The notes under the pieces: generated by a model
What the model was told of the DNA's origin: nothing
Seen by the model: only the letters and a program-made list of their open reading frames with translations
Database searches by the model: none
Assembly (NCBI GenBank): GCA_051294375.1
Contig: CM119269.1
Coordinates: 15,201,918 to 15,265,917, forward strand
Length of the DNA: 64,000 bases
Direction: 5' to 3'
Origin: Paraspadella gotoi
Taxonomy: Eukaryota; Animalia; Chaetognatha
Position numbers and translations under genes: made by a program
In this document: piece by piece, positions 4,428 to 64,000 of the stretch
How positions within the stretch are numbered: the first letter of the stretch is position 1
Layout: each line of letters starts with the position of its first letter

Positions 4428-4594
4428 TGCAAATGAAAAGGTTTATTTCCTTGTTAAAAGAAAGGAAGTCTTTGGATAAAACGAAGGAGCTTGTTTACAG
4501 AATGACGCGTATGTACGTACAGATACAAGTAGACTAAACTTTTTAGATCTTCTGGCTTTTCATTGAGTTTTAAAAATTGTCATATTGGTTACTG

Positions 4595-19272: not shown

Positions 19273-22200
19273 CGAGGCGATTTTTTTTTTTTTTTTTTGG
19301 AGAATCGAAAACGAAGAATGCGGGCGAGAGAGAGATTAAGGCAGAGAGAGAGTACGGCTCCGTTCCGTCCAGGGAAATGGGGGCATCAAAATTAGGGCGA
19401 AAGTTGAGTCGAAAAAGTTTTTATTCTCGGAAAGAAACGGGAGCGACGGTCCACGATTCGAGTTAGTCTTTATGACGTGTACATCGTCGTCGCTCTCACC
19501 GTCGTAGTCGAAAATCATGTAAAAGTTAGGAACGAAGCTAAGCGGAGAGAGAGAGAGAGAAAGAGACCTGGTGTAGAACACGAGAAAAACTAATATGAAT
19601 TATAAGAGTTCGAAGCCAAATTAACTTTCCCAAGTCTGTATTCAGTCAAAGCACACAAACTGGTTAGTAGAGCGTAGTGAAAGTTACGTACGGAAATTCT
19701 AAAAGTCAATTATGAACAACATACCATCAGTGAACATTAATTTGTAAAAAAAATTAATTTTATGTTTTTTTTAATTTTCGCAGTAGGCTATATTTATATA
19801 TAGTACTATCCTTATAAAATCGAAAAAATTCAAAATAGGCTTTTCTTAATTTTGATTGCAGATTTGAATTCCTCATCTTGATAAAAGAAAATATAAATCA
19901 TTTTTAAAAATTATTTTATTAGGTGGGTTAAAAATTAAAAAAACTATTTAATATATAAAAAGTTAATTTTCAGCTTAAAATATAGCTTTTTCTAATTTTT
20001 GACCCACTTAATGAAGGAATTTTTCAAAAAGAATTATATTTCTTGTTATCAACTTTTTATGACGAATCCAAATCTGCAAAAAAATCTTAGAAAAAACTAA
20101 ATTTAAAAAAAAAAAATTAACGCCAATCGAGTTTTTAGTAAAACATCAGAAGGCTGATGCAAGCGAGTTCCAGGTAATACTGCATTCTGATATATTATGA
20201 TGTGTCTTCTATCGAAACGGAATAAAAGGTTATATACAAAATACATGCCCAGAGTAATTTATTTATTCTTTTTTCACTTTATTGATGGAAGAAAGGAGTT
20301 ACGTGAACACGAAGTCACGTTCCACTTTTTCCTTTTTTACAACTCTAAGATTTGGTGAGAGATTCTTTCTCTTTAAAGTTTATTCCTTATAGTGGAGCGA
20401 GTTCTACTTCTAGTTAAAGATCTTGATCCCTTTTAACTAGTGTTACCATAACCGTTAACGGTTATTAACGGTTAAAAATGATTTTAACTTAACCGTTAAT
20501 ATATTTATTTTAACAGTTAAATTCGGTTAATTTTAAAATATCATTTTTGTTATTTTTTGTTATGAAATCTTTGAGTTTTTAAAAGAAAAGTATTTTTTTC
20601 CTGTCCTCTCTTATTCTCCCTCCCTTTCTCACCATATTATCCTCTCTTCTCCATTTTTCCCGGTTTTTTTAAAAATTTGTTATTTTCAACCTTTTTAATA
20701 TTTTTTCTATCCTAATCTCTCTTTTATTCTTTCTTCTCCTCATTTTATACCGTTCTGTTCCTTTCTTTTTATTTTTCTCTTTCCCCTCCTTTCCCCCCCC
20801 TTTCTTTTCTCTCCTTTTTTTTCTCCCTTAGCTTTTACCTTTTTCCTTTTTTTTCTGCCCTTACACTATTTTTTTTACTTTCTCCCAATTTTTTTTTCGT
20901 TTTTCCTTTTATTAACTAATTTAACTAAATTAATTTAACTAATTTTATGTATTACATTAAAGAATATTTTGAAATATAATATATATGCACATGCATAGTA
21001 GCATACATTTTCTTGCAAATCAAATCTTTGGCAGTGATTTTGATTTGGGTATTTTCAACAATGAAATTGAAACTTAAATAACTATTATTTCTTTTTTTCC
21101 TACTGATAACTATGAAACACTCTTTATTTAAAAAAACGGTTGGCTATAGTTATTTTCTCCTTATAACATCGAACTCACTGGGTGAATTTCTATGCTTTCA
21201 AAATACGGTAAGACATGATTTCTTTTACGACAATCATTCTCATTACGGGATCTGCCATAATTAAGATGAAACTATAACAATTTTTCATGGTAAGGGCAAC
21301 TTTTAAAGATTAAATTGCTAATAAGATCTATCGCGTTTTTTAGATATACTACTTCTTAGGCAAAACAACGGCACGTTATATTTTAAAACTTTTTTTCTTT
21401 TTTTTTCCACTATTTTTTTCTCTCTTGAACCTTCTCTCTGTCTCTCTCTTTTTCTCTCTTTCTCTCTGTCTTTCTCTTCCTTTCTCCTACTTTTCTCTCC
21501 TCATATTTCTCTGTGTAATCCCTTATTTTCTTCCTTAACCTTTATTTCCCTTCTCAATCTCTGTTTTTCTCTGCTTCTCTGATTCTCTTTTCTCCCTGTT
21601 TCTTATCTTTTCTTTTCTCTTAATTGTTCTCGTTTTCCCCCCTCTCCCCATATATTAATTTCTTTCCACTCTTTCTCCCTTCAATTTTTTTCACCCATTC
21701 TCTCTCTTCTCTCATCTTTTTATCATTCTCACTTATTTTTTGCATTCATATCATACTGGATGTATAAAAATCTTTAAAATGTAATGTAAGAAAAAAATCT
21801 AGGGTAGCGAATGATTTTAGCGGAAGTTTGGTTGCCAAGCAGATTTAAACAAGTTTGAGCAAACAATGTCGGATCTGCCTACATAATTAATTAATTAATA
21901 GATTAATTAATTAATTGATTAATTAATTAATTTTAATAATTAATTATAAATTATATTCAGCTTGTCATCATTGATGTCCTTAAAATTGAGTCAGGACAGT
22001 TATTAAATGTTTTGTTTACATTTTATCAAAACAAACAAATATCCTCTATTATCGAGCCAGCCGGGCAAAGCCCGTCCTGGCTAGATTTTGATTCGGTTTA
22101 GCTTTCGGTCACGCTTTTTTGCAATCATGGCTTCTGAAAGGTTCCGCGTACAAACGTTGCATTTAGGAAAAAAACGACTCTTTCCACTATTGTTCAGTTG

Positions 22201-30443: not shown

Positions 30444-31231
30444 AAATACGCAAGAGTTTCAATTCGGTCAAGCGACATGATTTCATTCGTTTGTAGGTCA
30501 TATTTGGGTGATGTAGAAATGAATATGTACGAAGAAATAGCATCCATCCGATACTTGATATAAGAACTTAAAAAAGTTTTGACATTACAATAACTAAAAT
30601 TTTACAATTTATTAGTTACAAAATTGATATAATCCGTTATTCGAAATCATAACATTCGATGGTGTGCCTCCTACAAGACCCAATAATTGTAATAATAATA
30701 GGAATGAAATTTTTAAAAAACCTGGTAATTCAAATAAAAATTCAGGGTTTAGAATTTTCAGAACGAAAAAATGTGTCTTATTTACAATGACAATTCTTTA
30801 GCACGCCGAAATTGTCCAAATTTTCAAAGCAACTGTGAAATGTACGCAAACATAATACATGAGCTAATCAGCGTTGAAGGCCGTTGAACAAAACAACATG
30901 TGTAATTTAAATTAGCTAATGACCTTAAGTCTCAATTTAAGTTATAAATAGGTCTTGAGTCAAAAAGTCCATGAAAGTACATAGTAACGCATCAACATCT
31001 ATGTCACAACGAAATACTGCTTTCTGAAAAAGAACAATACCGTACCACGTCTTTAAAGTTAAAAAAGCGAATTTGCTGGCGCGTAGCTGAAGAATTCGCC
31101 CAAGGCTCAAATGGAATGATGACCCCACAGTATCACAGATTTATTTCGAAAAACGATTCCGCAATCGACAATCCTTGGTTTTGAGAAAACGTTGTGACGA
31201 GATGACGATGGCGTCAAGAATTGTGACCCCA

Positions 31232-34200
31232 TCAAAGCAGGTCTGTAAAGTAAAAAAATTGAAAGGATCAATTTTATTTTTAGCACATGTATCTACTTAC
31301 TAAATTATATAGATTTCTTACAACTTACAGGGTAAAGCAATGTTTCTATAAAAAGATGTTATTGTACATATTTTTTCGACAACTAAACTTGGAATATTTG
31401 CTTAAGCAGGGGTATCGGAGGTCTGATGAAAGTTTAAAGATAAAAAAACTAAATTATATAATATATTGTTATTTTTAAATTTTTAAATGCAAAAAGACGG
31501 CTTTCTATTTCTAATTCAATTTATTAACGAAATTTACAATGGATGTTCTCGGTAGCACACGTAATAAAATTGCATAAACTGTGAGCTAATATTCCAAACA
31601 TGGCAGGGTTAACTAAAAGGCAAACTTAATGATACATATATAATAAATAAAAAAGGCAAGCTTAGACAGATAGGTTTTACATTAGACAAAGCAAAAATAT
31701 TGCTAATCAGTTATCATCATTCAATTAATATGCAACTTTCTAGTTTTATAAAAACCATCAATAAAAAGTAATTAATATGAAAAAAACAACAAAAAAACAA
31801 AATAACGATTAAAGACCAATACAGTCCAATCTAGTAAAATATGAGTTTATACTTCCGTGATTGTGAAGAATATCATAACTAATATTTTCCAATCTTGTAT
31901 TGACAATACACAATTACTCATGAACCAGATTTCACTGTTTTTTTTATTCTGTACCAACATAATTATTAAGACGTTACTATAATTTTAAAATCAAAAGATG
32001 CAATTTATTCTTTACATAGTAATTGAATGTTAATATTTTGTACTGATTACTTATGTAAATAAAATACATGCAGAATATGAAAGGAAGCTTTGATTTTTTT
32101 TTCAAGAAGATTATGCAATAAATTCGACGTTTTCTATTTAAAAACAAAATTACATTAGATTAAAAATTTATATATTATTGCATATTCCTTCAATAATATG
32201 ATTCTATGAAAACTCAAGAGTCGGAAGCTTTAATTTAGTTTCATATAAGAAATATAAAACGTGCATTAAGTACAGTACACAATCTTAATTTATTCACATA
32301 AAAACCAATTTTCTGTTGGTATATTCACAGAATCGACCTAAATGGATTTTCGCTAGTTTATCCTTTAGTACCTGAATCACAGTCAGCAAACATGTTTGAG
32401 ACATTAGTTGCTGAATTAGGAGCAAAAGCTATGCTAGGTGTTCCTTGCAAGACAGGTGATGAAGCATCAGAAGGAGGGGAGCAAGTTCGACAAGAGGAAT
32501 CTGGACTCTGATTTGTGAAAACAGCTGGATTTAATAGCCCCGTTTGGGATTTGCTTTCAAAAAAATTGGGACAATTTCCTTGATTCTTGATTCCAGTCTC
32601 GCGCCCATTCAAAGGTAATTTTCCAATGATTGGGGAAGACGTGCAGGAATAAAAAGGATTAGCATCGTCGACAGCAATGGAAGTAGAGTTATAAAAAGCA
32701 TTAGTAGAAAAATGAGTTGGTGATGTGAAATTTTTACATTTAAAGTCGGACTCTAAAGGTAAGTCTTGCCCTTCACTAAGATTACTAACAAAATTTAATG
32801 TAGCATTATCGTCTTCCAAAGGTGAAAAAAAGAAAGATCCTTTACTTTGCTTAATTCCCGATGGATCTAAAATGGCTGAAGAAGGGCCACCGACTCTACC
32901 ATTTGAATTTGGAGTAACATCTGCATTGGAATTCCTTATATCTTCGGTACCAGTGGGATTGTAATGTGCTGATGCTGTATTTACTGTATAAGAATCTGAA
33001 CTTGACCCATTTGTTGAAGAAGCCGTAGAATTATTAGCTGAAACTGGGCTTGATCCAATGCGTAAAATCTGAGTGTCAACTTGTTGAACTGTTGCAGGAG
33101 AAGTTGCACCAAAAAGCTGATTGGATCCACTTGTAGTACTCATAATCATTTGAGAAGATCCCAGTGAACCAATAGATAAATTATCACTTTCCTGTGTGGG
33201 TGAAGCATGTGGACGATCGGCCAAATCATCTTCAGACGAAGTTGTCGAACCTGCATCCGAAGAATCTTGTATGAATACAGGCCGACCTCCGCTTCTACAT
33301 GATAAAGTCATTAAGGGCTGTGATGAGGGATGATGGGAAGGAGATGTGGTTATCTTTGAAGAAGTAGGAGGTTGAGGAGATTGAGACTGCTGTGGAGACA
33401 TTCCAAATCCATCTAAAGATTCAACAGACCTCATGCGAACATCTTCTTGACTGCTTGCACCACTTCCAACTGGCCCAAGCAAATTGGAAAGCGCGGGTGG
33501 CTGAGATGTAATAGGACTAATGGACTGATTTATTGAAGAAGGACTTGTGAGGGATGCTGCACTTGAAGATGGAAGGAAATCCCTTTCAGGATCTCGCTCC
33601 TCAGCGTGGGAAGGCGTAGCCTTGTCACTTTTTTCCTGTTTTTGCTTAGTTGACACCAAGGTTTCTTGGGTCAACCCAGGTTGACTTGAATCAAATTTTA
33701 TAAAATGCACAGAATCTGTAGTTTCAGTGCTTTTAAAAAAAGAATCTGGAGGAACAGCCATTCCCCTTCCCAAATGGCCTGAACTATCTTTGGACGGAGG
33801 CTGACCATGTAAATGATCAATCATACCTTCACTTTTTATTTCATGAATTTCTGCAAAATGCAGAGGCACTTTTCCAGTTCCTTCACTTTTGAGCTCAATA
33901 CATTCATCAGTAGCTTTAGCATAATCGATATGAGACATTTTTTCATTAACCTTTTCTGAAAGACTCACTGGCTGAGCTGTGACTTTCATAGCTTCATTGT
34001 CTTCCAAGGCAACTATCTGTGAAATGGTATTCCCTTCCGGAACAACTAAATTCAATTCATCCTTATCAAAGGCACTGCCCCCATCCAAGCGCTTTTCACT
34101 TGTATCACGTATTCCTTTTGCAAATTCCTCCATTTGTTCTGGAGGTGTAGGTCCTGCCCAAAATGATGAGACAGTTTCATGCTCGACATTCTTATCATTA

Positions 34201-37200
34201 TTTTCAGAAAAAAAATCATTTCCAATCTCTTTCGCTTTAAGAACATCATTTGCTTTATGATGCAAAGCTACTTCTATCTTAGTATCCGCTTCATCTTCAC
34301 TTGAAAAAATAACCTCCACCTCTCTAGCATACTTCAGACCTTTGCCAAATTCTTCTTGGAATTCTTTTCCTTTCTCCTCCATTTCCTTTTCTTTTAGATC
34401 CATAGTAAGCTTCATTTCTTTCTCTTTAGCATCTAATTTCTCCTCAAATTCCTGTGTTTTCTTACTCATTTCCCTCTCAAACCCATTTGCTCGTTCCACA
34501 TCTTCTTTTGCTTCTTTTCTTTTTTCTTCCCAAAATTCCCGATTCTTTTTCCTTTCATAATCCTCAGTGCTTCTTTTAAGCGGACTAAATGACTGGTGCA
34601 ATTCAGATTCCTGACTTTGTTCTAACTCTTTTGCATACAACACCTTTTCTAAGACACGTTCGCGCTCTGATTTGAATTCGTGATCTTGTTCATTAGTAAA
34701 GTTAGTTAAACCTATGTTCTCATTTTTAATTAATGAACCTTTTTCAAAATCAACTAAAGACTGAAGTTCATCTTTAATCAAAGCTTGATGGGATAACTCC
34801 TCACTCTTTGTTTCCACAACATGAACTAAATCTTCATCAATATTAACATTAGTCTGTGGTACAGGCGAAGAGTAAAGATCAACCATTTCCGGTAAATCTG
34901 TTTCTGTCAGATGGGAAACTCGGGTTTCAAACGATGACTTACTAATATCAGTGTTGGGGAAAGCAACGGCAATTTTTTCTTCATTTACTTCATTCTTCAC
35001 TGTCGGTTGCTCATCAGATTTAACCTCAGCGTTGGATGTTTCCTTACTAAAGTTCAAAGGAGATGTGTCTATCATATTGGTTTCTGGCTCAGTTTCTAAT
35101 GCAGAATGGGTGGTATGAAATTTTTCTTCCTTTAATACGATGACTGCCGGATCTTCACGATCTGCTAAGCCATGCTCACTGTTCTTAACCAGATCAGAAG
35201 ATTCGTGGGCTGCTCTCTTGTCCACAATATCACTTATTCCTTTTTCTTTAACTAAAGAAGAAGACAAAGCTTTATCCTTCTCATTATCAAGAGAAGGATC
35301 TTTTGATTCATCTGTCTCTTTATCATTGGATACTGGAGCAACTTGCTGTGTTATCTTTCCCAAACCCAATTTTGTAACTTGCGCAGCATCTTTATCATCT
35401 TTTGTCACTTCAATTTTAGCCTCTTCTTTCAAAATTACTACATCCTCGTCTTTCGTTTCTTCAACAGTAACAAGATGTTCAGTAGTAACTTGGGATTCTA
35501 CCTTCACCTCAGTCTTCACCAAAACGCCCTGAGCATCCCGTATCTCCTGAGCCACGACAGCTTTATCTTTTTTAGTCTCTTCTCTTGGTACAACATCCAC
35601 AACAACATTGTTAGTCTCATGCTTAATTTGTTTAGCCTCCGCAACGTCTTTTGGATCAGCCTCCTTTGCCTCTTCCTTTTTCACCTCATCCACAATTTCC
35701 TTTTTCATAACTTCCCCCACGTCTTCCTTTTTAATACCAACAAACTCATTTAGATCCTCTTTTTTAACTTCAACCTTGTCCTTCTTTATCACAGCATCTT
35801 CCTTTGCCTCATCCTTTTCCACAACACTAAACTCCTTCACTTCTTCCTTTTTCACAACAGCTGCATCCACTTCCTCTTCCACTTCTCCAACATATGCTTC
35901 AACTTCGTCAATTTTAATAACCACCTCTACCGCTTTTTTTTTCACAACAGCAGCCTCATCTCCCTTTCCCATCTTAATAACCACCTCTGGCTCATGCTTT
36001 TTCACAACACCTTCATAATCAACTTTTATTTCCCCATCAATGGCTTTCTCTGCTTCTTCATTTTTTACAACAGCCATTGATTCTTTTGTAGGGGAATCCT
36101 CTGCTGTTTTGGATTTCCTTTCATCCTCCCGTTTTTTTATTAGAAAATTTTCTCCCTCATTTAATTCCTCAGGAGCAGTCTTTGCAGCCTTTTCCACAAC
36201 AGCTGCCTTTTCCACCACAGCTGCCTTTTCCTCCTTGATAACTGCAGTCTCCTTTGCTCCCTTCTTGACAACCGCAGCCTGCGTTTCCTCTTCCTTCTTG
36301 ACAACCGCAGCCTGCGTTTCCTCTTCCTTCTTGACAACCGCAGCCTGCGTTTCCTCTTCTTCCTTCTTGACAACCACAGCCTGCGTTTCCTCTTCTTCCT
36401 TCTTGACAACCACCACCTGCTTTCCCTCTTCTTCCTTTTTGACAACCTCGGCCTCCTTTTTCACTTCTTCCTTCTTGACAATAATCCACAGACTGCTATT
36501 CCTCTTTTTCTTTCTTGATAACCGCAGCTTGCTTTTCCTCTTCTTCCTTCTTGACAACCGCAGCCTCCTTTTCCTCTTCTTCCTTCTTGACAACCTCAGC
36601 CTGCATTTCCTCTTCTTCCTTCTTGACAACCGCAGCCTGCTTTTCCTCTTCTTCCTTCTTGACAACCGCAGCCTGCTTTTCCCTCTTCTTCCTTCTGACA
36701 ACCGCAGCCTGCTTTTCCTCTTCTTCCTTCTTGACAACCGCAGCCTGCTTTTCCTCTTCTTCCTTCTTGACAACCGCAGCCTGCTTTTCCTTTCTTCCTT
36801 CTTGACCAACCGCAGCCTGCTTTTCCTCTTCCTTCTGTACAACCGCAGCCTGCTTTTCCTCTTCCTTCTTGACAACCGCAGCCTGCTTTTCCTCTTCTTC
36901 CTTCTGACAACCGCAGCTTGCTTTCCTCTTCTTTCCTTCTTGAAAACCGCAGCCTGCTTTTCCTCTTCTTCCTTCTTGACAACGCGAGCCTCCTTTTCCT
37001 CTCTTGCTTCTTGACAAATGCAGCCTCCTTTTCCTCTTCTTCCTTCTTGACAACCGCAGCCTCCTTTTCTCCTTCTTCACACCACAGCCTCTTTTCCTCA
37101 TCTTCCTTCTTGACAACCAAAGCCTCCTTTTCCTTATCTTCCTTCTTGACAACCGAAGCCTCCTTTTCCTCATCTTCCTTCTTGACAACCGAAGCCTCCT

Positions 37201-40200
37201 TTTCCTCTTCTTCCTTCTTGACAACTGCAGCCTCCTTTTCCCCTTCTTCCTTCTTGACAACCGCAGTCTCTTTTTCCTCTTCTTCCTTCTTGACAACCGA
37301 AGCCTCTTTTCATCTTCTTGACAACTGAAGCCTCCTTTTCCCCTTCTTCCTTCTTGACAACCGCAGTCTCTTTTTCCTCTTCTTTCTTTCTTGACAACCG
37401 AAGCCTCCTTTTCCTCATCTTCCTCTTGACAACCGAAGCCTCCTTTTCTCTCTTCCTTCTTGACAACTGCAGCCTCCTTTTCCCCTTCTTCCTTCTTGAC
37501 AACCGCAGTCTCTTTTTCTCTTCTTCTCTCTTCTTGACAACCGCAGTCTCTTTTTCATCCTTCTTGACAACTGAAGCCTCTTTTCCCCTTCTTCCTTCTT
37601 GACAACCGCAGTCTCTTTTTCCTCTTCTTTCTTCTTGACAACCGCAGCCTCCTTTTCCTCTTCCTCCTTCTTGACAACCACAGCCTCCTTTTCCTCTTCC
37701 TCCTTCTTGACAACCACAGCCTCCTTTTCCTCCTGCGTCAAGTGCAGCTTCCTTTTTCCTGCTTGACAATCGCAGTCTCCTTTTCCTCTTCTTCCTTCTT
37801 GACAACTGCAGCCTCCTTTCCTCTTCTTCCTTCTTGACAACCGCAGCCTCCTTTTCCTCTTCTCCTTCTGACAACGCACCTCCTCTTTCCCTTCTTCCTT
37901 CTTGACAACCGCAGCCTCCTTTTCCTCTTCTTCCTTCTTGACAACCGCAGCCTCCCTTTTCACTTCTTCCTTCTTGACAGCCATAACTTGCATTTCCTCT
38001 TCCTTCTTGACAACCGCAGCCTCCTTTCCTCTTCTTCCTTCTTGACAACCGCAGCCTCCTTTTCCTCTTCTTCCTTCTTGACAACCGCAGCCTCCTCTTT
38101 CCTCTTCTTCCTTCTTGACAACCGCAGCCGCTTTTCCTCTACTTCCTTCTTGACAACCCGCAGCCTCCTTTTCCTTTTCTTCCTTCTTGACAACCGCAGG
38201 CCTCCTTTTCCTCCTGGTCAAGTGCAGCCTCCTTTTCCTGCTTGACAATCGCAGTCTCCTTTTCCTTTCTTCCTTCTTGACAACCGCAGCCTCCTTTTCC
38301 CCTTCCTTCTTGGAAACCGCAGCCTCTTTTTCCTCTTCTTCCTTCTTGAAACCACAGCCTCCTTTGCCTCTTCCTTTTTGACAACCGCAGCCTCCTTTTC
38401 CTCCTGGTCAAGTGCAGCCCCTTTTCCTGCTTGACAATCGTAGCCTCCTTTTCCCTTCCTCCTTGACAACCGCAGCCTCCTTTTCCTCCTTCTTCCTTCT
38501 TGACAACCACAGCCTCCTTTGCCTCTTCCTTTTTGACAACCGCAGCCTCCTTTTCCTCCTGGTCAAGTGCAGCCTCCTTTTCCTGCTTGACAATCGCAGT
38601 CTCCTTTTCCTCTTCTTTCTTGACAACCGCAGCCTCCTTTTCTGCTTCCTTCTTGACAACCTCAGCCTCCTTTTCCTCTTCTTCCTTCTGGACAACCGCA
38701 TCCTCCTTTCCGACCTCTTTCTTCTTGACTACTGCAACCTCCTTTTCATCTTCCTTCTTGACAACCACAGCCACCTTTTCCTCTTCCTTCTTGAAAACCG
38801 CAGCCTGCTTTTCCTCTTCTTCCTTCTTGACAACTGCAGCCTCATCAACTTCTTCCTTCAAAATTACAGCCTCCACCGCCTTCTTTTCATCTTCCTCCCT
38901 CACATTCACAACCTTATTCTCTTTCTCCACAACCACAGCCTCTTTTTCCTCTTCCTCTTTAACAGCGGCAGCCTGACTTTTCTCTTCCTCCTTCACAACC
39001 GCTGCCTCCTTGACATCTATGGCCTGCTTTACCTCTTCCTCCTTCACAACCACAGCCTCTGTTTCCTCTTCTTCCTTTACATCCTTGTTATCCACAGACT
39101 TTTTTTCCTCTTTCTCCTTCACAACCACATTCTCATTTTCCTTCTTGATGACCGCAGACTGCTTTTTCTCTTCAACAACCGATGCCTCCTTTTGCTTTAC
39201 TCTCTTGATAACTGCAACATCTTTTTTCTCTTCCTCCTTAACAACTGAAATTTCCCCGACATCCTTGATAACTTCTATATTATCTTCCTTCTTCCAATCC
39301 ACAGCATCCATTTCTTCTTTATCGACAACTGCAACCTTCTCTTTGCCTTTGTCTAATGAAACCCTCTTTTCCTCTGACTTCATATCCGCATTCATTATGT
39401 CCATCACAACTTCATCCTCTTTTTTTTCCATGTTGACAACACTGGGCTCTGCTCCCTTAACTTTCTCAGCAGCCACAGTCTCCTTGGCTTCTTCCTTTTT
39501 CACAATCTCATCCTCAGCATTTTTCACAGAATCATCCTCTTCCTCCCTCATAACTGCAGCCTCCTGTTTGTTTATTTTTTTAACCTCCACAGTTTCTTTG
39601 TGTTGGACAAGGACGGCCTTCTCTACCTCTTTCATTTTAACAGGAATTTTCTCTGCCTTTTCCGTTTCAATCACAGAAGCCTCCACTATTTCATCATTTA
39701 CCACGCCAGAAGCTTCCACTGCTACCTTTTGCACATCTGTACCTTCCTTTACATCTTTTGTTTCCACATCGGAAGCTGTCTCTTCCTTTTCCACATCGGA
39801 AGCTTCCTTGTCCACGACAGAAGCTTCCTTGTCCACGACAGAAGCTTCCTTGTCCACGACAGAAGCTTCCTTGTCCACGACAGAAGCTTCCTTGTCCACG
39901 ACAGAAGCTTCCTTGTCCACGACAGAAGCTTCCTTGTCCACGACAGAAGCTTCCTTGTCCACGACAGAAGCTTCCTTGTCCACGACAGAAGCTTCCTTGT
40001 CCACGACAGAAGCTTCCTTGTCCACGACAGAAGCTTCCTTGTCCACGACAGAAGCTTCCTTGTCCACGACAGAAGCTTCCTTGTCCACGACAGAAGCTTC
40101 CTTGTCCACGACAGAAGCTTCCTTGTCCACGACAGAAGCTTTCTCTTCCTTGTCCACGACAGAAGCTTCCTCTTCCTTGCCCATGACAGAAGCTTCCTCT

Positions 40201-43200
40201 TCCTTGTCCACGACAGAAGCTTCCTTTTCCTTGTCCACGACAGAAGCTTCCTTGTCCACGACAGAAGCTTCCTTGTCCACGACAGAAGCTTCTTGTCCAC
40301 GGACAGAAGCTTCCTTGTCCACGACAGAAGCTTCCTTGTCCACGACAGAAGCGTCCTTTTCCACGACAGAAGCTTCCTTGTCCACGACAGAAGCTTCCTT
40401 GTCCACGACAGAAGCTTCCTTGTCCACGACAGAAGATTCCTTGTCCACGACAGAAGATTCCTTGTCCACGTGACAGAAGATTCCTTGTCCACGACAGAAG
40501 ATTCCTTGTCCACGACAGAAGACTTCCTTGTCCACGACAGAAGCTTCCTTGTCCACGACAGAAGCTTCCTTGTCCACGACAGAAGCTTCCTTGTCACGAC
40601 AGAAGCTTCGCTTTTCCACGACAGAAGCTTCCATTTTCCACAACAGAAGCTTCCTTTTACCACCAACAGAAGCTTCCTTTTCCACGACAGAAGCTTCCTT
40701 TTCCTTGACAGAAGCTTCTTTTCTACGACAGAAGCTTCCTTTTCCACGACAGAGCTTTCTCTTCCTTTTCCACGACAGAGCTTTCTCTTCCTTTTCCACG
40801 ACAGAAGCTTTCTCTTCCTTTTCCACGACAGAAGCTTTCTCTTCCTTTACCACGACAGAAGCTTTCTCTTCCTTTTCCATGACAGAAGCTTTCTCTTCCT
40901 TTTCCACGACAGAAGCTTCTTTCTTCTTTTCCACAAGAGAAGCTTCCTCTTTCTTTTCCACCACAGAAGCTTTTTTCTTCTTTTCCACAAGAGAAGCTTC
41001 CTCTTTCTTTTCCAAAAGTGAAGCTTCCTCTTTCTTTTCCAAAAGAGAAGCTTCCTCTTTCTTTTCCACAACAGAAGCTTCCTCTTCCTTTTTCATATCA
41101 GAAGCTTCTTCCTTTTTCATATCAGAAGCTTCTTCTTCCTTTTTCACATCAGAAACTTCCCTCGCCTTCTCCTTTTCCACTATAAATACTTCCTCTTCCT
41201 CATTCATGATGGAAGCTTCTTTTGACCCTTCCTTTCCAACATCATTAGTCTCCTGTTTGCATACAGTAACATTCCCAGCCTTACCCATTTTCACTTTAAC
41301 CATGTTTTCTGCTTCCCGATTCCTTTCAACAAAAATAGCTTCATTTTCGTTGGCCTCTTCTTTATCATCGCCACTCAATGTAACATCTGTAGCTTTTTTC
41401 TTTTCAAACCTCACTTCAACAGCATCATCCTCATCTGTTTTCTTCAAACCTACTTCCGCATCCATCATATTACCATCTGTAATTTTTTCAGGGATTTCTT
41501 TGCTATCATCCATTTTCTCTTTTACCAAGATATCGACTTCAGCTTTATTGTATGCGACAACAACAGATCCATCTGTATCCTCTTCTTTTTTAATACTCAC
41601 GGCTTCTTCACCTTTTTGCTTCTTATCAAACGTTACAATATCCTTGGTTTCTGTCTCTTTTTCTTTCACGCACTCTTTAGCTTCAGGCTGAGTCTCAATC
41701 ATATCAGGCTCAGCGTCATCTTTCTTAACAGATTCTACGGCTTCTTCAATTGATTCCACGATTTTAATAGACTCCGACTGCTCAACAGCAACCTCCTTAG
41801 GCTCAATCATTATATCTACACTTCCTTTAGCAGATTCCACAGCTTCCTTCTCCTTCTGCAGAATTTTTTTATCATCATCTTTCTCTGGATCCAAAGCCAG
41901 ATCTTTTTTAAACTCATCTTCACGAGAACCTTTACGCCTTTCAATTTCATTTGGCGGCAAATCAGTCTCGCCTTGCTGCATTTTCTGATCCATGGGCTTT
42001 TGAACCACTCCCGTGATCCTTTGGTTTTCGCCATTCATAGAAAAATCTTGAGAAGCAGGAACAACATCAAAACTAGCCACTGTAGCATCGCTCCTTTTAT
42101 CGTCAGCTCCATTTGCTTGTGCTTTCTGAGGGACTTTCGCTACTTGCTCTGATGAAATTTCGGCAAAAAAATTTTCTGTCATACCTTTTATGAGTTCTTC
42201 CTGATCTAAAAACATTCTTTTACAATTCGTACCTGATTGAGGTGCTGAAACATTTCCATTGAGTGCGGGGGGAGGCCCAAGTCCAGGAAGGTCAAGTAAA
42301 GGGGATTCATCCATGATCCCAACGTTCTCGACATCTGTACTCTTCTTGGATGGTATCGTGCTCCTAAAATTGAATTAAATTAAGATTGCTTTACTCAGGT
42401 AGGAGGTGCGTAGGTTTCTCGAATTTGAAGACAAATATAGACATTCTGAGTTTATTTTTAATTTTTTTATTAAAACTTTCTATCAAACACCAAAAATCAA
42501 TTTTAACTTAAATTTAATTGACTTGGTTACCAAGTATTTTGACAAATACAAAATTTAAATATAAGAAGAAACAAAACAAATGATCTTTACCGATTGCATA
42601 TTTCAAAATAATAATTACCCAAACGCATCGTCTAAATTGTCAGCCTTCGAGCTGCCATTGACTAGATCCATTGCTTTCTTGTTATCCACCGTTCCGTTGA
42701 GTTTTGTAGAGTCCACAACGACATCGTCTAAGAAAAGTAAAAAGAGCATCTTACTTATTCTTAGGTGAAAAAATATTAAAGAAAATTAATTATAAATATC
42801 GATCAATGAAGAGATGGTTAAAGGCGTAACGAAATATTTTATTTCCCAATGAATGAATATTCAAAATCAATTGAATAAGTACGACGATTATTTTAGATGA
42901 ATCTTAAGAAAAGTTTCTTCCTGACAAAAAATTACGTCAGTTATCCAATAGCAAAAAAAATCTTAAAAGCATAAGGATCGTCGCAATCGCATAAGAAAAA
43001 TTTGGATTGATGACAAATTTTGATACTAAAAAAAATCAAATTTGAAAAAAGAAAATTAATTTATAAACAGAAGGAAAAATTATATTTTGCGATTGTCAAT
43101 TAAAAAAATAATAAAGTACCGAGGAAAATTAAAGTTACAGTTTCTAAAAAAAAAAAAAACCTTTTTCATTTTCAAAAAATAAGCTGATCAGCAGACGCAG

Positions 43201-46200
43201 CCCCTGAGAAAAAAAAAACGAAATAAAAACCCGATGATACGATAGCAAAATGATAACATGCACGAATGCAATGCTTAATTTTACGAGTTCAATCCTAATT
43301 CAATTTTTTTAAAATAAAAACAAAGAGAGAGAAAAAAAGAAAAAAATCAAAAGGCAGCAGCAGAAGCAGCAGGAGAAAAGAGAGAAAAATAATAAGCCCC
43401 TGCAGAGTCAGCTGCACGAATCAGTGACTAGGGAAAAGGGAGAGGGAGAGAGACATGTAATTAAAAGAGAAAAGGAGAGAGACATGTAATTAAAAGAGAA
43501 AAGAGAGAAAGAAATATAAAAATAAAAGAAAGAAAGAAATATAAAAATAAAAGAGAGAGAATTTGTTTGTTTTGATAAAACAAAAACAAAACATATTTAA
43601 TAACTAATAAAGAAAAACATCGATTTGGGAAACAGTGCTAATTTTATTTAGACCATGCATTCAAACCATTTTGCTGGTTCATTATTCAAGGCCAGAGAAA
43701 TTGTGGTGAGGTAAAAAATTATTTACAAATAAGAGAAGGTGAGAGGAAGGAGGAGACTCAGAGAGAGAGAAAGAGAGAGAGAGAGAAACTTTCAACAAAA
43801 AGGGATTAATCCCTCATCCCCCTCCCCCCCCCTTGTTCTTCGTCCGGGATGTAGGTGGTCCAGGATTGGCTTCCATGCATCTGTTTTCACGTATGCTCCT
43901 TTGTCTTCGTTGAGCCCTTTGCCTGGTCCACAATCAAAATGACGAATCCAAAGAGCTTCTTCCACTCTTAGATGGTGCTTGAGCATTCTTTGGTTTTTGA
44001 TTCGTGGCTGAGAGATGATTTCAGGTTCCCAGATGAAAAGGGCATCGCAATGCTCTCGATGTTGTGTCAAGCCGGAATGACGCCAATTACCCGACTCGGT
44101 TGCTCTTTTGTGTTCTGCCGTTCGAGTTTCAAAACTACGACAGGTTTCTCCAATGTATCGAGCCTTAGGAGAGCAAGAGCAACGAAAGCTATAGATTCCG
44201 CGTCCCTTTTTTGGCAACGGCTTTGTTTTGTTTGGGGCGCAGAGGATGTTTGCCAGCGTCTGTCCGCTCCTGCTAAAGAGTGATGCTCCTGCCTTTTTAA
44301 AAGCTCTTTGCAGTTGTTGGGTGATACCTGGAAGGTATGGAAGTGTAGCATAAGGGCGGAGTTCGTATTTTGTGTCGTTATGGAAAGGCAGTTCAGCAAA
44401 AAGGTTTGCTACAGTTGGTTGTTGTTGTGATCGTTGTAGTAGGGATTAATCCCTTTTTGGTTGAAAGTTTTCTCTCTCTCTCTCTTTCTCTCTCTCTGAG
44501 TCTCCTCCTCTTCCTCTCACCTTCTCTATTTGTAAATAATTTTTTACCTCACCACAATTTCTCTGGCCTTGAATAATGAACCAGCAAAATGGTTTGAATG
44601 CATGGTCTAAATAAAATTGCACTGTTTCCAAATCGATGTTTTTCTTTATCAAACTACTCGGTGCATGAGATGACACTTAACAATATATTTAATAACTGTT
44701 CTGACTCAATTTTAAGGACATCGATGATGAGAAGCTGTATATAAATTTTCAGCTTCATACACCCAAATTTAATCATAAAAAAGGCGATCTATAATTTGGA
44801 ACGCCAAAGACGACAACGACGCCACTTATGTGCAAAACCAGAGCAATATCGTCGCAAACGCAAAGCGATTGCGACGATAATAATTCAGATAAAAAAGTAA
44901 TTGCATAAAAACCGTAATTAATAAGAAAATTATAAATAATCATTCACCATGGCCAAAACCCCACTCCCTATTTTTACCGGCAGGAGAGGGAATGATGAGG
45001 TTTCCATTAACCCCGTCGTCGCCAACTTGAGGCGAAAGAATCTCGTCGGCGGGAGACGTCATCGGAGATTCCGTATCGGGGGTGTCCGCCTGATTATCAT
45101 TATGTCAGGTTTACACCGAAACAAAATTCATACCGCTCCCACCCTCCCTCCCTCCGTTTCCCAAAAGAAGAAAGCCTGCCAAAACTGACCTGAGGCGGCG
45201 GAAGGGACAAAGACGTCGGAGGTTCGATGGCGTCGCTCGACTCCTTTCTTCCATTCTTCTTTTGAAGGATCGGAAGTTTTTGGAGGAGAGGAGATTTGAA
45301 ATCTGACGAATTCCCTTCGAGTTTTTCTGCCGAACGATTAAATGAGATATCAAATTATTGAATTACTTATAGCAATTACATTGTATATTAATATATGAAA
45401 TACCTGGGGACGATGGGGCGGGAGACCTTCGGGCGTCCTCGGGCGCGGAGGACGCCGGTGGCGCCATCGCTGCAGCTGGAGGCGCCGCCAAGGGGGACGG
45501 GGTTTCCACCAACGGAGACGGCATAGGTTTCTCCTCGGGCGTGGACGATTCGTCAGACTGCAAAAACAAAGCCCAACCATCAACGGCATTCAGCAGCAAA
45601 AACGCCACCGACTGTCGACGCACCTTGCTATCCGAAGTGGGCGAGTCCGTTCTTCTTGTTCTTCTCATGATTTCCTCTAACCGCTGTTTCCGCTTGTCTC
45701 TCTCCTCGGCTTCTTTCTGCAGCTTGATCTGCCTTTCCTTCTCTGCCCTTTCCTCTTCTTCCTTGTCCTTTCGCTCCTTGTCTTCCTTCTCCTTCTGCTC
45801 CTTTTCTCTCTTTTGTCTTTCCTCGCGTTCGCGTTTCTCCCTTTCGGCTGAGAAAGAATTAATTAATTCATTAGAATAAACGAAAAGGTGGATTCATCAC
45901 CCCCGTCGATAAACCTCCCCATTAGCGTTCTTCCAAGATGATTTTTATCATTTTTTTTTTAAATATCGGATTCTTCGGCTCCTATTGAACTATCTGTGTC
46001 TGAGCCCACACGGGCTCCACATCTCGACTTTACAAGTTTACAGGTGTGTCACCCAAGGCAAAAATATCGCCACACTCCCAGGCCCCACGTTCCCTCGTTT
46101 CAAACAACCTTTAAGATTACTTTCCCCTCTCACCGATAGCCCTTTTAAGTCTCTCCTCCTCTGCCCTTTTGGCGACCTCCGCCAGTTTTCTCGCTTCCTC

Positions 46201-49200
46201 CTCCGCTTTTCGTTGAGCAGCCTCCAGTCGGCGCGCTTCTTCTTCCTCGCGACGCCTTTTGTTCGAAATAAAAAAACGAGATTAAACAATATTTCGTTTT
46301 GCGGGGGAAAAAAAAATTGCCAACGTCGCACGCATAAAACCCTTGATTTCAAAATGTGGGACGGATGGAAGGGGGTGGGGGGGGAGGAGGGCTGTAGGGA
46401 AACGAACGAGTCTGAGAAAGGGGAAATGCAAGAGAGCGAAAATGATGAATTCTGTTTTGAAAAACGTTGGGAACGACGCGGTGACCGCGAGAGGAAGAAG
46501 GATGATCAAGAAGAAACGGGTGAAAAAAATTGCTAAGGAGAATTAGAATGAAGAGAATGAAGAGAATTAGAATGAAGAGGATGAGGGAGAACCAGTTAAA
46601 TGTGTAAAAAACTGATAAACTTACTTTTCCTCCTCGAGTCTGAGTCTTTCAGCTTCCGCTTCCCTCTCTCTCTTTTCCCTTTCCTCCCTCCGTTTTTCGT
46701 TCATTCTTCTCTTAGCCTCCTCCGCCTCGATTTCCATTTTGCTCTTTTGCTGCTGCTGCTGTGTCTCGGGCTGTGGTTGCTGTTGTTCGGGTTGAGGGAG
46801 TGATGTGGCAGTTTCTTGACCCTCATTCGTTTTGTCCCCTGGAATGTCAAGGAGAAAGATTTGTAAAAGTAAAAATGGCACAATCATTTGGACAAACGAA
46901 ATCTAAAATAGGAAGAGAAAAAATTCTGAAGAGCCAGAAATATGTTTTGTTTTGTACTTCAAGTTAAACCGTAATTTTAAAATCCAATAAAATACAACAG
47001 GGCCTAAAAGAAAAAATATATATATCATAACTTTGAAAATCAATTATATTACAAATATACTAAAATATGGACAAATTAAAAAATTTAAAGGACAAAACCT
47101 TTAAAAAAATTTTAAAATCACTTTTAAAAACTCACAAAAACCGAAAAGCAACGAGCAACGACTTGAGCTTTTGAAATAATTTATACCTTTAACCTCACTC
47201 ATCGCACTTATTCGAAAAAAAAAGGAGAGAAAATCGAGGCCAATATCCGACAGGAACGTGGAAAAGAAATTTATCATCGAGACTGACTCACCCGGCGATG
47301 AGGCCGACGCGGTCTTTCCATCGGACGAGGTGGATTCCGGGGGCGGGGAAGTCGGTTCGGGGGCGGACGAAGCCGCCGGGGAAGCGGCCGGAGCATCGGC
47401 CGCCGGCGAAGCGGAAAGGGTCTCGGCGACGTCGGCCGACAGAGCCTCGGGCAGGTCCGTCGCTCCTTCGTCTGAAGAAAGGAAATCGGTTGACAAATAG
47501 GAAGGAAGGTCGGGTTTCACGTAAAAGGGGAAATAACTGACATCTTCGTTTCGTTCCATTTACATTTATCAAAACGCGAAGGATTTGGAATTGCATTTAA
47601 CATTTCATGTCTGATATCCTGGTAATTAGAACGTGCTATAATCAAGGATTAAATCCTCAGGAGTATTACTTTGATTAAACAAGGAAAAAAATGCTGTAGG
47701 TCATATACGTATTTCAGTATTCGAAAATTATTAGTTTACTTATCGAAATCAATAATCAATTATTCATGCTCGCGCACCGTAATTTTTTAGAATAATATAA
47801 ATTAGGTTTTCAAAAAATGGTTAGAATATTAGGATTCGACAATTTAAAAGTTAGTAATTAAAGTACTGCTGATTAACGGCAAAGAATAACTTCAGATTTA
47901 TGGACCAAAAATGAGGGACGTGCAGAAGATTTTTAAGGAGCCCATAAATTCCATCTGGGCCACATATATGGAGATTTTCAATTAATTTAAATGTTTTATT
48001 CAACCACGTGGTAACTATGTAATTTTGATGGAAGTTCCCCCACAGCGATTTGATATGCGATTCTTTCATACAAAACCGACGAGACCTATACAATGTAAAG
48101 GGGAATCACCTCTGCACGCCCCTGCAAGTTACTGAGTATCAAGTTAGTGCAAACTCATAGTTCGAAGTGGAAATGAAAATGGGTCGGAGTTGTCGTACCG
48201 TCTCCGATGTTCTTTTGTTCGCCGCTCTCAAACGCTCCTGCCACCTCACGTTTTTCCTTTTCAACTTTCTTGGGGAGCAAGGGGGCTGTGCTTTTGTCAT
48301 CCTCGTCTTCGTCTTCGTCGTCAGTGGCAGCAGAAACGAATGCATCTGCATCGGAGATCGTGGCCGGCGCGTGACTAGCAGGAGTCTCCGGCAGCGTCGG
48401 CGGCGGCGTTTTTTCTCGTGCAACACCCTCGTCTCCGCGTTCTCTCGGCGCGGCGCCGTACGCAGCAGACGGGGCGGCCGACTCTGCATCGCCTCGTACC
48501 GGCGCCGCGTGACTAAGAAGATCGGCGCTCGGCTGCTGCGCTGACGACGACCGGGCGCCAGCGAATCCTTCTCCCTTTTCTCCCGGTTCATCATCTGGTT
48601 TCGTCGAGATCTCGCTCACTGGGGGATTCGCGTTCAAAGAATACGGGCCGAGATGAGAGGGTGAGGACGGCGCGATGCAGGAGAGAAAGGATAAGAAGAG
48701 GAAAGAAGATGGGAGAGGAAAGAAGATGGGATAGGAAAGAAGATGGGATAGGAAAGAAGATGGGATAGGAAAGAAGATGGGATAGGAAAGAAGATGGGAG
48801 AGGAAAGAAGATGGGAGAGGAAAGAAGATGGGAGAGGAAAGAAGATGGGAGAGGAAAGAAGATGGGAGAGGAAAGAAGATGGAGAGGAAAGAAGAGGGGA
48901 GAGGGAAAAATGGGAGAGGATAGAAAAGGGGAAATGAAAGAAGATGGGAGAGGAAAGAAGAGGAAAGATGAGAGGAAAGAGCCAGTAAAGGAGGAGAAGC
49001 GAACGAAGAAGGGTTGTCGAGTTGATGGAACGAAGAAAAAGGAGGGGGAAACAAAACATTACTTCAAGATAATCAATTTCGGGCCGGATATACATAGAAA
49101 AAGGAAAAAAAATTCGCTTATAGACGAAAAGTCATATCAACTTCCATCTTGGGTAGGGAAAACTTTCTTTCTTGCTCTTGACGGACGACGGAGGGTCATG

Positions 49201-52200: not shown

Positions 52201-55200
52201 ATATAAAATACAATACAATAGTGAATAAACGAGACTGTGAGAGAGTCTTGATTGAAAGCTTGCAGGGACCTGCTATGTCATTATCTTGTAAGAGTGATGG
52301 TGGCCTTAAATCACCAAAGCCTGTCCAAAGTTAGGGGCAAGATAGATATTTATTAAATGAATGGATAATTTTGTTTATTGGTTGTACCAATTTCATACAA
52401 TACAATACAATCCCGAAATATATAAATATATTTCAGAGACAGGAAGTTCTATTACTTTAAAATCAAGTAATTGTAATCTTTTAAAACCCTTTCAGTTTGT
52501 CTAGACCACCGAACTCTTTCCATCTCCACAATTAAATCGGTCATTTAATGAAATTTACTCTTGCGCCCCCTTCTAAATGGATTTACCAACTTACCGGGTG
52601 TTTTTTTGGGCCCACGGCCAGAAGGTTCCTCTTTCAGTTTCTCCTTTACGGGCGTAGACGGTAAAGGTGGGGCGGGTTTTTTCGGTTGCGGTCCGCCGGT
52701 GGCCGCTTCCGGTGGGCGCGTCTTGGCGGGCGGCACCTTGACATCCGGCTTGGACGGAGGCGCGGATTTTGCGGACGGAGGTGGCGCCTTTTTCGTCGTC
52801 GCCGCGGGTTGTTTCTGATCGAGTTTTTTTGCGGGAACTTTGTCGTCTTCTTTGGGCGCCGAGGCCGTTTTGGGCTCGGGTCGCGGCGATGGCTTTCGCG
52901 GTTGGTCCGCCGCCTTCTTGGCGACGGCAGCCGATTCCGGTTTGGAAGTCTTGGGTTCGGACTTGACCGGAGGGGCTGTAGACCTCGGTTTCGCTTTGTC
53001 TTTTGCGGATTTGGCGATGGGCTTTGGGACTGTAACCGCGGAGTCGGGCTTGGGAACAGCCGCTTTCGCTTCGGGTTTCGAGTCCGAAGATTTTGAGTCG
53101 GGTTGTTGGGCGGCTGCCCCTTTCGGGTCGGGCTTCGGGATAGGAGTTTTCGAGTCGGGTTTCGGGGCAGAAGTTTTCGAATCCGGTTTTGGGGGAGGGG
53201 TTTTCGACTCGGGCTTCGGAACGGGGCTTTTCGTCTCTTGTTTGATCGGGGGTTGAAGCTTTGGGGCGGATTTGACTTGAGGGGAGCCCGGTCTGCGAGG
53301 GGGAGTTACGTTTCGGCCGGCTGGCGCTGGCGAAGACGATTTCTGCAGAAACCAGAAAATAAATTTGAACGCGTTTTGCTAATATTGGAGTCCAAATTTT
53401 GCATTAATAAGAACGTGTAAAATAACCCATGATCACCAAATACCCAACTCCCTTGCCACGGTCACCTTCTTTGGCGGCTCGCTGATGGTTCTCCTGTGCG
53501 CCTTCTTCTCCCCTGCCGAGTCACTCGCCGAAGAGCCGGACTTTCCTATAAAGAGAAAACGAGTTTCAGTAATTAGTCTCGAAAGAAAAGAGATAAAACG
53601 AAAAAAACGAGATGCAACGAACGAAGTCGAAGAAAAAAACAAATTAAGAAAAAGGGTCATTCAACTCAACTTCGAAATAGGCCAAAATGGAGTACAAATT
53701 CAGAAAGCTGACCTCCTGCCGATTCCGAAAATGTATTCACTTTAAACATTTGATGCATTCTACGCCATTTTATATCGGTTTTAATTATAATATAAAATAA
53801 AAGAAACCTATCTGAAGAGTTGCAGCACAAACGAAAAGGCCAATCCATCTGATATTTTTTATGAATTTTTTATTAGTGAATTCGAAAAATGTAATAGAGA
53901 GACATTTTTAAATTTCAACTTGTATCATTGAAAATGAAACATTTTTAAACTTTAACCCTGAATTCTTCATAACTGGAACGCATTTAACAAAATGTCTCTC
54001 TATTACATTTTTACAAATGTTTTTAAGATAGCTAATCAAATTTTTAAATCAATATTATAGCAGTCGTTTAGGCTGCAACTCTTCAAATTCAGTATAGATT
54101 CATTATAGCTCAAATTTCTTTACCATCTATTTAACTGAAGATTTTGTTCATGACTGGAAAACCAACAGAGTAACAAGATTAATTGTTTAATTCCCCCCTT
54201 CTAAATTTGCCTTTACCGTGTTTTAACTTGTTACCTAGAATTTTTTAACAATCAGATTGAAAAACAAATCTTTAAAAAATGTGCTTACCCATTTAACTTA
54301 ACAATTTTGTTATTTACCGATTTAAAAAAAATGATTGAAAACAGAATGTTTACATATAAATAAAAACTTATTTTTTTGTGATTACTGATGACTATAATGT
54401 ATTTCTCGATGTATTAGCTCTAATACATCAAAGATTACGCATTGTTATGCTGAATGACCTTTCCTCTTAAGAAGAGAGAGAGACAAACATTACGGATGAG
54501 AAGTGACTTTAAAAAGACACTCCTTTTGAGGCGATTATTTCCTGTAAAAAAAAAAACTCTCACGGTAAGCCGTTCATAAAAAAGTATAAATTAAATGCTT
54601 TACCAGGTTCTCTGGCATGATGTGATGCTTTGAGAGGCTGTCTCGGCTGAGAAAGTCGGTCAACGCTTTGCTTGATGGAGGACTTCAGAGCGGATCTGTC
54701 GATAGAGGCGCTTTGCGCACGTAGTCCCTTGGTTTTGTCTGAATCGCCCAATTAGTCAAGGGAAAAAAAAAATTTTGTTGTTTAAAATTGCGGAAAATCG
54801 ATAGAGTCATAGACCTTATTATTTCTAAACTTTCTCCTTAAAAAAATCGTAATGCAAACGAAAAATTTAAGGAAGAGATAATCGTTGGCTGTGGGTAGAA
54901 TTAATGAATGTACGCAAATAAAAATTGGATGCAATGAGTTAAACGACATCAAAGCAAAATAAAGTCGAGTATAATTTACGCGGAGAATCACTTACGAGTG
55001 GACAAATACGCTATTTTGTCACGCGTTGGTTCAAGACAATCACATCGACAACGACGCAAGCGATTAATGGATGACGATGAAAACAAAAACAAAGCGAAAT
55101 GGTTCCCTTTGGGGAGCGAAAATAAAATTCACACAGATAAAGGTGAATATAAATTAGAGGCTGTTTTTTCTTTCCGAATATGAGCTAAAAACAAAGGCTA

Positions 55201-63959: not shown

Positions 63960-64000
63960 CTACCACAAATCGCCAAAACTTCTTCCCATGGCGCTTTGTT

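Follow-up and report, generated by a model that had tools for sequence, protein, structure and literature searches.

A 64,000-nucleotide (nt) stretch of the genome of the chaetognath Paraspadella gotoi (assembly GCA_051294375.1, contig CM119269.1, positions 15,201,918 to 15,265,917), referred to here as the window, carries on its minus strand a gene of the MAP7 (ensconsin) family, and the last intron of this gene holds a 9.8-kb coding-like stretch that may be spliced in as a giant exon. A giant MAP7 isoform very probably exists, because the gene is identified by its MAP7 domain, its short isoform is present in RNA, both ends of the giant stretch are transcribed, and the stretch is conserved as protein code. 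The initial annotation had proposed such an isoform of about 4700 residues or more; the domain, the two transcribed ends and the conserved frame speak for it, while no RNA contig links the MAP7 exons with the giant part. The giant-exon model as a whole is favoured with less assurance, as the best overall account of the locus. Positions below are those of the window, and exons are given in reading order.

The MAP7 gene and its short isoform

The host gene is a MAP7 family member by its C-terminal MAP7 domain (PF05672), which was found above the gathering score in exon 45845-45624 (minus strand; E=1.5e-9, 38.3 bits versus a cut-off of 28.5, from this exon alone), so that the initial assignment of the upstream exons to MAP7/ensconsin holds; the seven other pieces in the same Pfam scan gave no significant match. 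Three proteins (P0001-P0003) among 2599 candidates share 86-88% identity across the MAP7-domain exon, in a search limited to protein lengths of 131-2000, a range beyond which giant MAP7 proteins of other animals would fall. Ahead of the domain lies a Pro-rich linker, with exons 53342-52595 (predicted) and 47471-47292 (RNA-shown) rich in Pro, Ala, Ser and Lys. Inspection by eye of ten candidate stretches further upstream in the window did not reveal the N-terminal microtubule-binding helix, which likely lies beyond base 64000. Further Ser/Pro-rich candidate MAP7 exons occur near 63236-63099, 62985-62315, 57495-57127 and 54744-54604 (region 54600-64000, minus strand).

The RNA comparison drew on three sequencing runs of a single study, X1, X2 and X3, the latter two being from other organisms. 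Run X1 contains 0.99 of the words from 30800-36100, and it represents RNA because one of its contigs, of 1412 nt, carries eight spliced GT-AG joints. Letters 1-30 of this contig lie on 31216-31245 and are followed by the end of exon 42363-42233, which establishes the junction 42233->31242 that the initial annotation had named and, with it, a short MAP7 isoform ending in ...SAPQSDLL-stop. Contig depths in X1 (227.5 for the short form, 40.5-42.7 for the giant part and 11.6 for the last intron) are no basis for ranking the parts of one gene and were not used as expression levels. The exons of the chain are as follows.

52595 to 53342, minus strand: linker exon of the MAP7 gene, Pro/Lys/Ser-rich, 249 codons (predicted from an open frame with AG/GT borders).
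48199 to 48618, minus strand: alternative in-frame exon upstream of the MAP7 domain, 140 codons, Ala/Pro/Asp-rich (joined to 47471 by an X1 contig).
46134 to 47471, minus strand: three exons, 47471-47292, 46838-46625 and 46255-46134, which lead up to the MAP7 domain's ERK-rich helix (joints in the 1412-nt X1 contig).
45624 to 45847, minus strand: core exon of the MAP7 (kinesin-1-binding) domain, containing KRKQRLEEIMRRTRR (PF05672; spliced in X1; matched by X2 and X3 contigs).
42619 to 45557, minus strand: four tail exons, 45557-45404, 45326-45190, 45089-44978 and 42727-42619 (spliced joints in X1).
42233 to 42363, minus strand: last common internal exon, ending in phase 1 at donor 1, TCAG/GTACGA (letters 28-157 of the 1412-nt X1 contig).
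30500 to 31242, minus strand: shared last exon, (G)AC CTG CTT TGA coding for DLL-stop at 31234-31232, with the 3′ untranslated region (UTR; X1 contigs, UTR end unmapped).

The optional exon 48618-48199 has a donor hexamer, GTACGA, identical to that of donor 1. Its contig depth of 41.8 is near that of the giant contigs and the two parts may be included together, although depth cannot show co-inclusion.

The giant coding stretch and its conservation

Two donors bound the giant stretch, TCAG/GTACGA at 42233 (donor 1) and TCAG/GTACTA at 32372 (donor 2); as initially described, both are in phase 1, they lie 9861 nt apart, and from either the frame continues through acceptor 31242 to DLL-stop. Many indels separate the two donors, and the in-phase distance is therefore a 1-in-3 coincidence; the earlier figure of exactly 3287 codons becomes approximate, the frame being broken by indels in two repeat arrays. 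Read through donor 1, the frame stays open for 1364 codons, versus 1-86 codons behind the eight other RNA-shown donors of the chain, so that its length is not due to chance. Open blocks cover 42148-40800, 40271-38481 and 36476-32361, and the description of the stretch as coding-like throughout fits these three blocks but not the arrays, which are frameshifted as assembled and leave no single open frame. Dispersed self-BLAST cover is 0% across the stretch, versus 46% and 23% in two introns; its reported freedom from transposable elements is thus confirmed, as weak evidence because two other introns also have 0%.

Two X1 contigs, of 1169 and 4333 nt, match 42153-41170 and 36150-31957 with no differences, and extend 185 and 139 letters further towards the repeat arrays. 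Both unique ends of the giant stretch are transcribed; of the coverage that the initial annotation asked for across 32372-42232, these parts (42153-41170, and 36150 onward) were found, without a connection to the MAP7 exons. The features of the stretch and its borders are as follows.

42149 to 42232, minus strand: putative 84-nt in-frame intron, GT...TTTCATCAG (start of the giant contig at 42153; no joint seen).
32372 to 42148, minus strand: probable giant exon of about 9.8 kb (about 3,260 codons), with phase 1 on either side (X1 contigs at both ends; open blocks).
39782 to 41160, minus strand: repeat array 1, with 21/27-nt units of the EASVVDK and EEASVVEK type and frame-breaking indels.
36224 to 39011, minus strand: repeat array 2, with 36-nt units VVKKEEEEKEAA, frame-breaking indels and one TAG at 36498-36496.
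34302 to 34694, minus strand: conserved helical island with two predicted helices (P0004 match; synonymous changes in X2 and X3; AlphaFold2 from a single sequence).
32958 to 33233, minus strand: another conserved patch, within the distal part rich in Ser, Thr and Pro (matched by pieces of X2 and X3 contigs; 6 of 8 listed differences at third positions).
32366 to 32375, minus strand: donor 2, TCAG/GTACTA at 32372/32371, phase 1 (best of 206 GT sites; no joint seen).
31957 to 32371, minus strand: read-through behind donor 2, GTKG and a stop at 32360-32358, then 400 nt more in the same contig, with AATAAA at 32294 and 32009.

The distal frame could be compared with other organisms, since short contigs of X2 and X3 match 34554-34368 and 33233-32958 at about 85%. 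Third positions hold 16 of the 18 listed differences in X2 (p=1.7e-6; 34 differences in all) and 15 of the 21 listed in X3 (p=4e-4; 33 in all), and the changed codons are synonymous in 15 of 16 and 13 of 17 cases, respectively. The MAP7 exon in X3, taken as control, behaves like the giant frame (15 of 21 at third positions and 14 of 17 synonymous, among the differences shown). Because the changes are mostly synonymous, the distal giant frame is, judged from substitution patterns, protein code under purifying selection in two other organisms.

One protein, P0004, has 74% identity to 68 residues of the helical island (34682-34479), while its upstream 100 residues are unalignable; it was the sole match among 7989 scored candidates and, for the query residues of 35102-33600, among 1.84 billion representatives. 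A search across donor 1 gave no match among 108 candidates. The giant exon is thus fast-evolving and recognisable only in close relatives, P0004 being the sole match and short islands alone matching X2 and X3 at 80% or more; of the giant extension to be looked for in related genomes, such islands are present in X2, X3 and P0004. AlphaFold2, run on the single sequence of the helical island, gave two long helices with a predicted local distance difference test score above 90 in the core and a predicted template modelling score of 0.33, and the long helix has an 11-residue hydrophobic period (p=0.0125). A heptad period was unsupported (p=0.34), and a homodimer prediction, in which the alignment was not used, gave a score of 0.00 and no verdict. 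A metagenome locus (L001, one locus of 395 stretches) resembled by eye a bacterial methyltransferase-type frame and was rejected as a chance match.

The arm encoded by the giant stretch is rich in Glu, Lys, Val and Ala, and VVKKE occurs 46 times along a frame-tolerant path; this path added false shifts in blocks that were already open, and counts of repeat units were used instead to follow the frame. The EKVA-rich blocks have a charged fraction of 0.42-0.50 and a net charge per residue of -0.09 to -0.11, aromatic residues are nearly nil in the repeats, the composition falls on the disordered side of the charge-hydropathy line, and the final 613 residues are Ser/Thr/Pro-rich. The arm is predicted to be a weakly acidic, mostly disordered polyampholyte, and its initial description as simply acidic is overstated in view of the mixed charge. 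No SxIP or W-acidic pattern was found, in the usual forms of these motifs. A Pfam scan of the three open blocks and P0004 returned nothing significant, PDB sequence searches gave a best E of 0.62, Foldseek gave no match, and the ESM Atlas gave no usable match.

Splicing of the probable giant exon and competing explanations

At the 5′ end, the giant X1 contig starts with its first letter on 42153, the first base of an ATCAG that is common to the end of exon 42363-42233 and to an acceptor-like site ending at 42149, 84 nt from donor 1. AG sites sharing at least three bases in this manner number nine in 430 nt, which puts the chance of a coincident contig start at about 2%; a sequence variant at 42154 could also yield a start at 42153, but it would have to hit that single base. 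The stretch 42154-42232 is without X1 contig cover, a gap that proves nothing, and the position of the contig start alone was used. GC content is 0.30 in 42149-42232 versus 0.40 downstream. Among three k-mer graph models, only the one that combines the short form, read-through and the form with the 84-nt intron spliced starts a unitig at 42153. Short connectors of relatively low coverage are removed by the assembler, and the unbroken short contig requires that connectors of 139 and 54 nt were removed. The contigs are Logan contigs, built with Minia3 and SPAdes-like simplification (PMC12424806). It is likely that transcripts enter the giant part from donor 1 both by read-through and through an acceptor of its own at 42148, and the giant part is probably a cassette exon that is included or skipped. 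The toggle between two donors that had been proposed initially is to that extent modified: a read-through form is also expected, but the giant exon probably has its own acceptor at 42148.

At the 3′ end, donor 2 scores highest of the 206 GT sites in the 4.1-kb block 36476-32361, by a matrix from ten RNA-shown donors, and it still ranks first among the 58 phase-1 sites if that matrix is built without the two GTAC donors. Behind it, GC content drops from 0.39 to 0.23, which equals that of intron 42618-42364; the shared last exon has 0.335. The giant frame passes donor 2 by 12 nt to a stop of its own (...DCDSGTKG-stop), and read-through RNA behind donor 2 exists. The spliced junction would form a 56-nt connector, and since removal of that connector leaves exactly the graph observed, the missing contig is not decisive. 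The proposed splice from 32372 to 31242 thus has the best-scoring donor and an in-frame DLL in its favour, but X1 contigs contain the read-through and not the joint; the main giant form is nonetheless likely to end in DLL. Two X1 contigs end at 31957/31958 with a 2-nt overlap, 47 nt behind AATAAA (32009-32004), where a poly(A) site, a coverage gap or a variant is possible.

Several observations weigh against a giant exon of this form. The RNA comparison covered the two ends only, with 41169-36151 (about 5 kb) outside it, so that a continuous 9.8-kb exon is not shown, and over the compared stretches no X1 contig links the MAP7 exons with the giant part. The three runs come from one study, and X1 is possibly not independent of the assembly; the differences in X2 and X3 were listed in part, with an X2 contig depth near 3. 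In the assembly, 23 of 102 repeat units disrupt the frame (unit length is not a multiple of 3 in 17 of 51 in the 36-nt array and 6 of 51 in the 21/27-nt array), a TAG stands in the repeat frame at 36498-36496, and substitutions among 18 intact 36-nt units, 6 synonymous versus 24 not, carry no signal of selection. The splice 32372->31242 is absent from the X1 contigs, the 4333-nt contig continues past donor 2 and the stop without splicing, as far as 31957, and acceptor 31242 is crossed unspliced by a contig covering 31958-31216. The k-mer graph argument requires that the assembler dropped short connectors, and an 84-nt intron would be open and in frame by chance in only about 8% of cases (0.23 x 1/3), which favours read-through as a real form too.

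The competing explanations address different steps of the model, and their probabilities are not meant to add up to one. The giant part could be an alternative last exon that ignores donor 2, ends in ...DCDSGTKG-stop and is polyadenylated near 31960-31990, the C-termini then differing as do the unique tails of Drosophila Ank2-L/XL. Such an exon would account for the 4333-nt contig, whose end at 31957, beyond donor 2 and the stop, is 47 nt behind AATAAA, and for the lack of a 32372->31242 joint among the X1 contigs. It is unlikely, however, in view of the rank and phase of donor 2 only 12 nt before the stop, an intron-like GC content behind it (0.23 and not the 0.335 of the shared 3′ UTR), and the graph that loss of the 56-nt connector would reproduce. 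To the same degree, we doubt that the two donors are pure alternative 5′ splice sites, with the giant form always reading through donor 1 and without the 84-nt intron. That these 84 nt are open and in frame would suit this explanation, and the fitting graph model itself requires read-through transcripts; yet pure read-through predicts a giant contig start at 42262 and a break of the short contig at 42233, whereas the start is at 42153 and the short contig is unbroken.

Less probable still is that the repeats with KKEE provide additional binding sites for microtubules, as they do in MAP1B, with the giant form bundling or coating microtubules rather than spacing them. A net negative charge should repel the acidic tails of tubulin, and here it is -0.09 to -0.11 per residue. 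The MAP1B region is highly basic (PMC2115962). The 46 copies of VVKKE count on the other side, as KKEE/KKEVI repeats carry the microtubule binding of MAP1B (PMC2115962).

The breaks in the frame could also be real: the arrays would then be minisatellites within an intron, or an exon in decay, and translation would be limited to shorter pieces (e.g. 42148-40800, or 36476-32372 via another acceptor). The 23 off-frame units, the TAG, the absence of synonymous bias in the 36-nt array and an RNA comparison that leaves out the middle would all fit; but breaks occur in the arrays alone, mostly as single-base changes within purine runs, the typical unit length is a multiple of 3 (the modes are 36, 21 and 27 nt, and 9 of 11 aligned off-length 36-nt units are one base off, mostly in A/G runs), the EKVA-rich text that the units encode is that of the open blocks beside them, and both contigs extend towards the arrays. 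Real breaks are accordingly thought improbable, and errors of long-read assembly in unpolishable repeats are the likely cause. Least probable of all is a separate nested gene on the same strand, not MAP7, with its own start near 42150, to which the lack of linking contigs and the in-frame ATGs (e.g. near 42037) would be congenial, but the frame is continuous with an RNA-shown MAP7 exon and has phase 1 on both sides, and the first base of the contig is precisely the one from which the acceptor-like site agrees with the end of the exon (about 2% by chance).

Elsewhere in the window, a MAP7 intron contains at 43640-44618 a 217-codon frame (44445-43795, minus strand) with a GIY...YIG motif, which resembles a Penelope-like endonuclease but has no Pfam match and is flanked by inverted repeats of about 175 nt, 92 nt of them perfect; a near-identical copy occurs in X1. 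A multi-exon gene at 2591-4430 (minus strand) starts like a signal peptide and encodes a fibrinogen C-terminal domain (PF00147, E=9e-34 and 1.6e-9), and a multi-exon amino-acid permease gene at 7570-19284 (minus strand), SLC7-like by eye, has two exons that match PF13520/PF00324 below the cut-off.

Proposed function and comparison with known systems

In the giant-exon model, exon 42363-42233 is spliced directly to the last exon to give the normal protein ...SAPQSDLL, and the 9.8-kb coding exon 42148-32372 is likely also included in some transcripts, so that the kinesin-binding domain would be followed by about 3,260 residues, mostly disordered. On entry from donor 1, the 84-nt in-frame intron would be spliced in some transcripts and kept in others; on exit, transcripts would return at 32372 to DLL-stop, some reading through to ...GTKG-stop, and the frame breaks in the arrays are taken as assembly errors. 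Inclusion could be limited to one cell type, by analogy most likely neurons or muscle. The giant protein, of at least 4,700 residues, would stay on microtubules by its N-terminal part and recruit kinesin-1 by its MAP7 domain, while the mixed-charge repeat arm could project outward as a tether or spacer that sets a distance; about 2,500 residues along this arm, the conserved helix might bind a partner or anchor. A spacer or tether role for the arm has roughly an even chance of being right.

If true, MAP7 would join the few cytoskeletal genes known to have a giant exon, and the giant form would couple motor activation to a very long arm, providing a natural test of arm length against microtubule spacing or anchoring. 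Gene callers and short-read assemblers drop frames of this kind, long and broken by repeats in the last MAP7 intron, so that similar exons may sit unannotated in the last MAP7 intron of other animals, which is where to look; the case is limited to one animal and a few relatives, with a predicted function. In agreement with the initial annotation, no giant MAP7 was found in the literature searched, where subscription papers were mostly outside and, in the database search, MAP7-domain proteins above 2,000 residues as well, and annotation in databases elsewhere is possible.

Large-exon inclusion lengthens the projection arm of microtubule-bound proteins in MAP2a/b as against MAP2c and in Big tau; these belong to unrelated families, in which the arm is N-terminal and shorter, whereas here it is C-terminal, behind the motor-binding domain. 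MAP1B/Futsch and the tails of the neurofilament heavy chain likewise have long charged low-complexity repeats with KKEE-type motifs. The neurofilament heavy chain has KSP repeats and an intermediate-filament rod, in contrast to no KSP and no Pfam match in the three open blocks here; the KKEE region of MAP1B is basic (PMC2115962) and the giant MAP7 arm is net acidic, and so not MAP1B. In MAP7 family proteins a linker joins an N-terminal helix that binds microtubules to a helix that binds kinesin-1 (10.1101/388512), and on microtubules these proteins recruit and activate kinesin-1 (10.1101/388512; PMC13406575). The gene described here shares the C-terminal MAP7 domain and predicted Pro-rich linker of mammalian MAP7 and MAP7D1-3 and Drosophila Ensconsin, and would differ from them by an arm of about 3,260 residues that follows the kinesin-binding domain and is optional.

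In its proposed way of working the gene resembles the giant ankyrins (AnkG/AnkB, Drosophila Ank2-L/XL and a 13.4-kb open reading frame of Ciona), which form short and giant versions through a fast-evolving, repeat-bearing exon of several kb. Giant ankyrin exons have a mean length of 8.1 kb, fast homology loss and lineage-specific arrays with repeats of 36-228 bp (PMC5135030), and a role as a molecular spacer has been put forward for the array of Ank2-XL (PMC5135030; PMC6703079). Giant ankyrins are membrane-spectrin adaptors with neuronal expression, whereas the protein here is a microtubule-bound kinesin activator without sequence relation to them (no Pfam or PDB match), for whose giant part neuronal expression is a guess by analogy. 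We raise, tentatively and as a conjecture that could well prove wrong, the idea that MAP7 independently evolved the giant-ankyrin design, as a cell-type-specific kinesin-1 activator of about 500 kDa with a repeat-tuned arm of about 3,300 residues and a helical anchor, in which a splicing switch would make a ruler for microtubule spacing or tie kinesin-rich tracks to a distant structure. As in the giant-exon class in general, a short isoform that skips the long exon is present here, with the junction 42233->31242 in X1.

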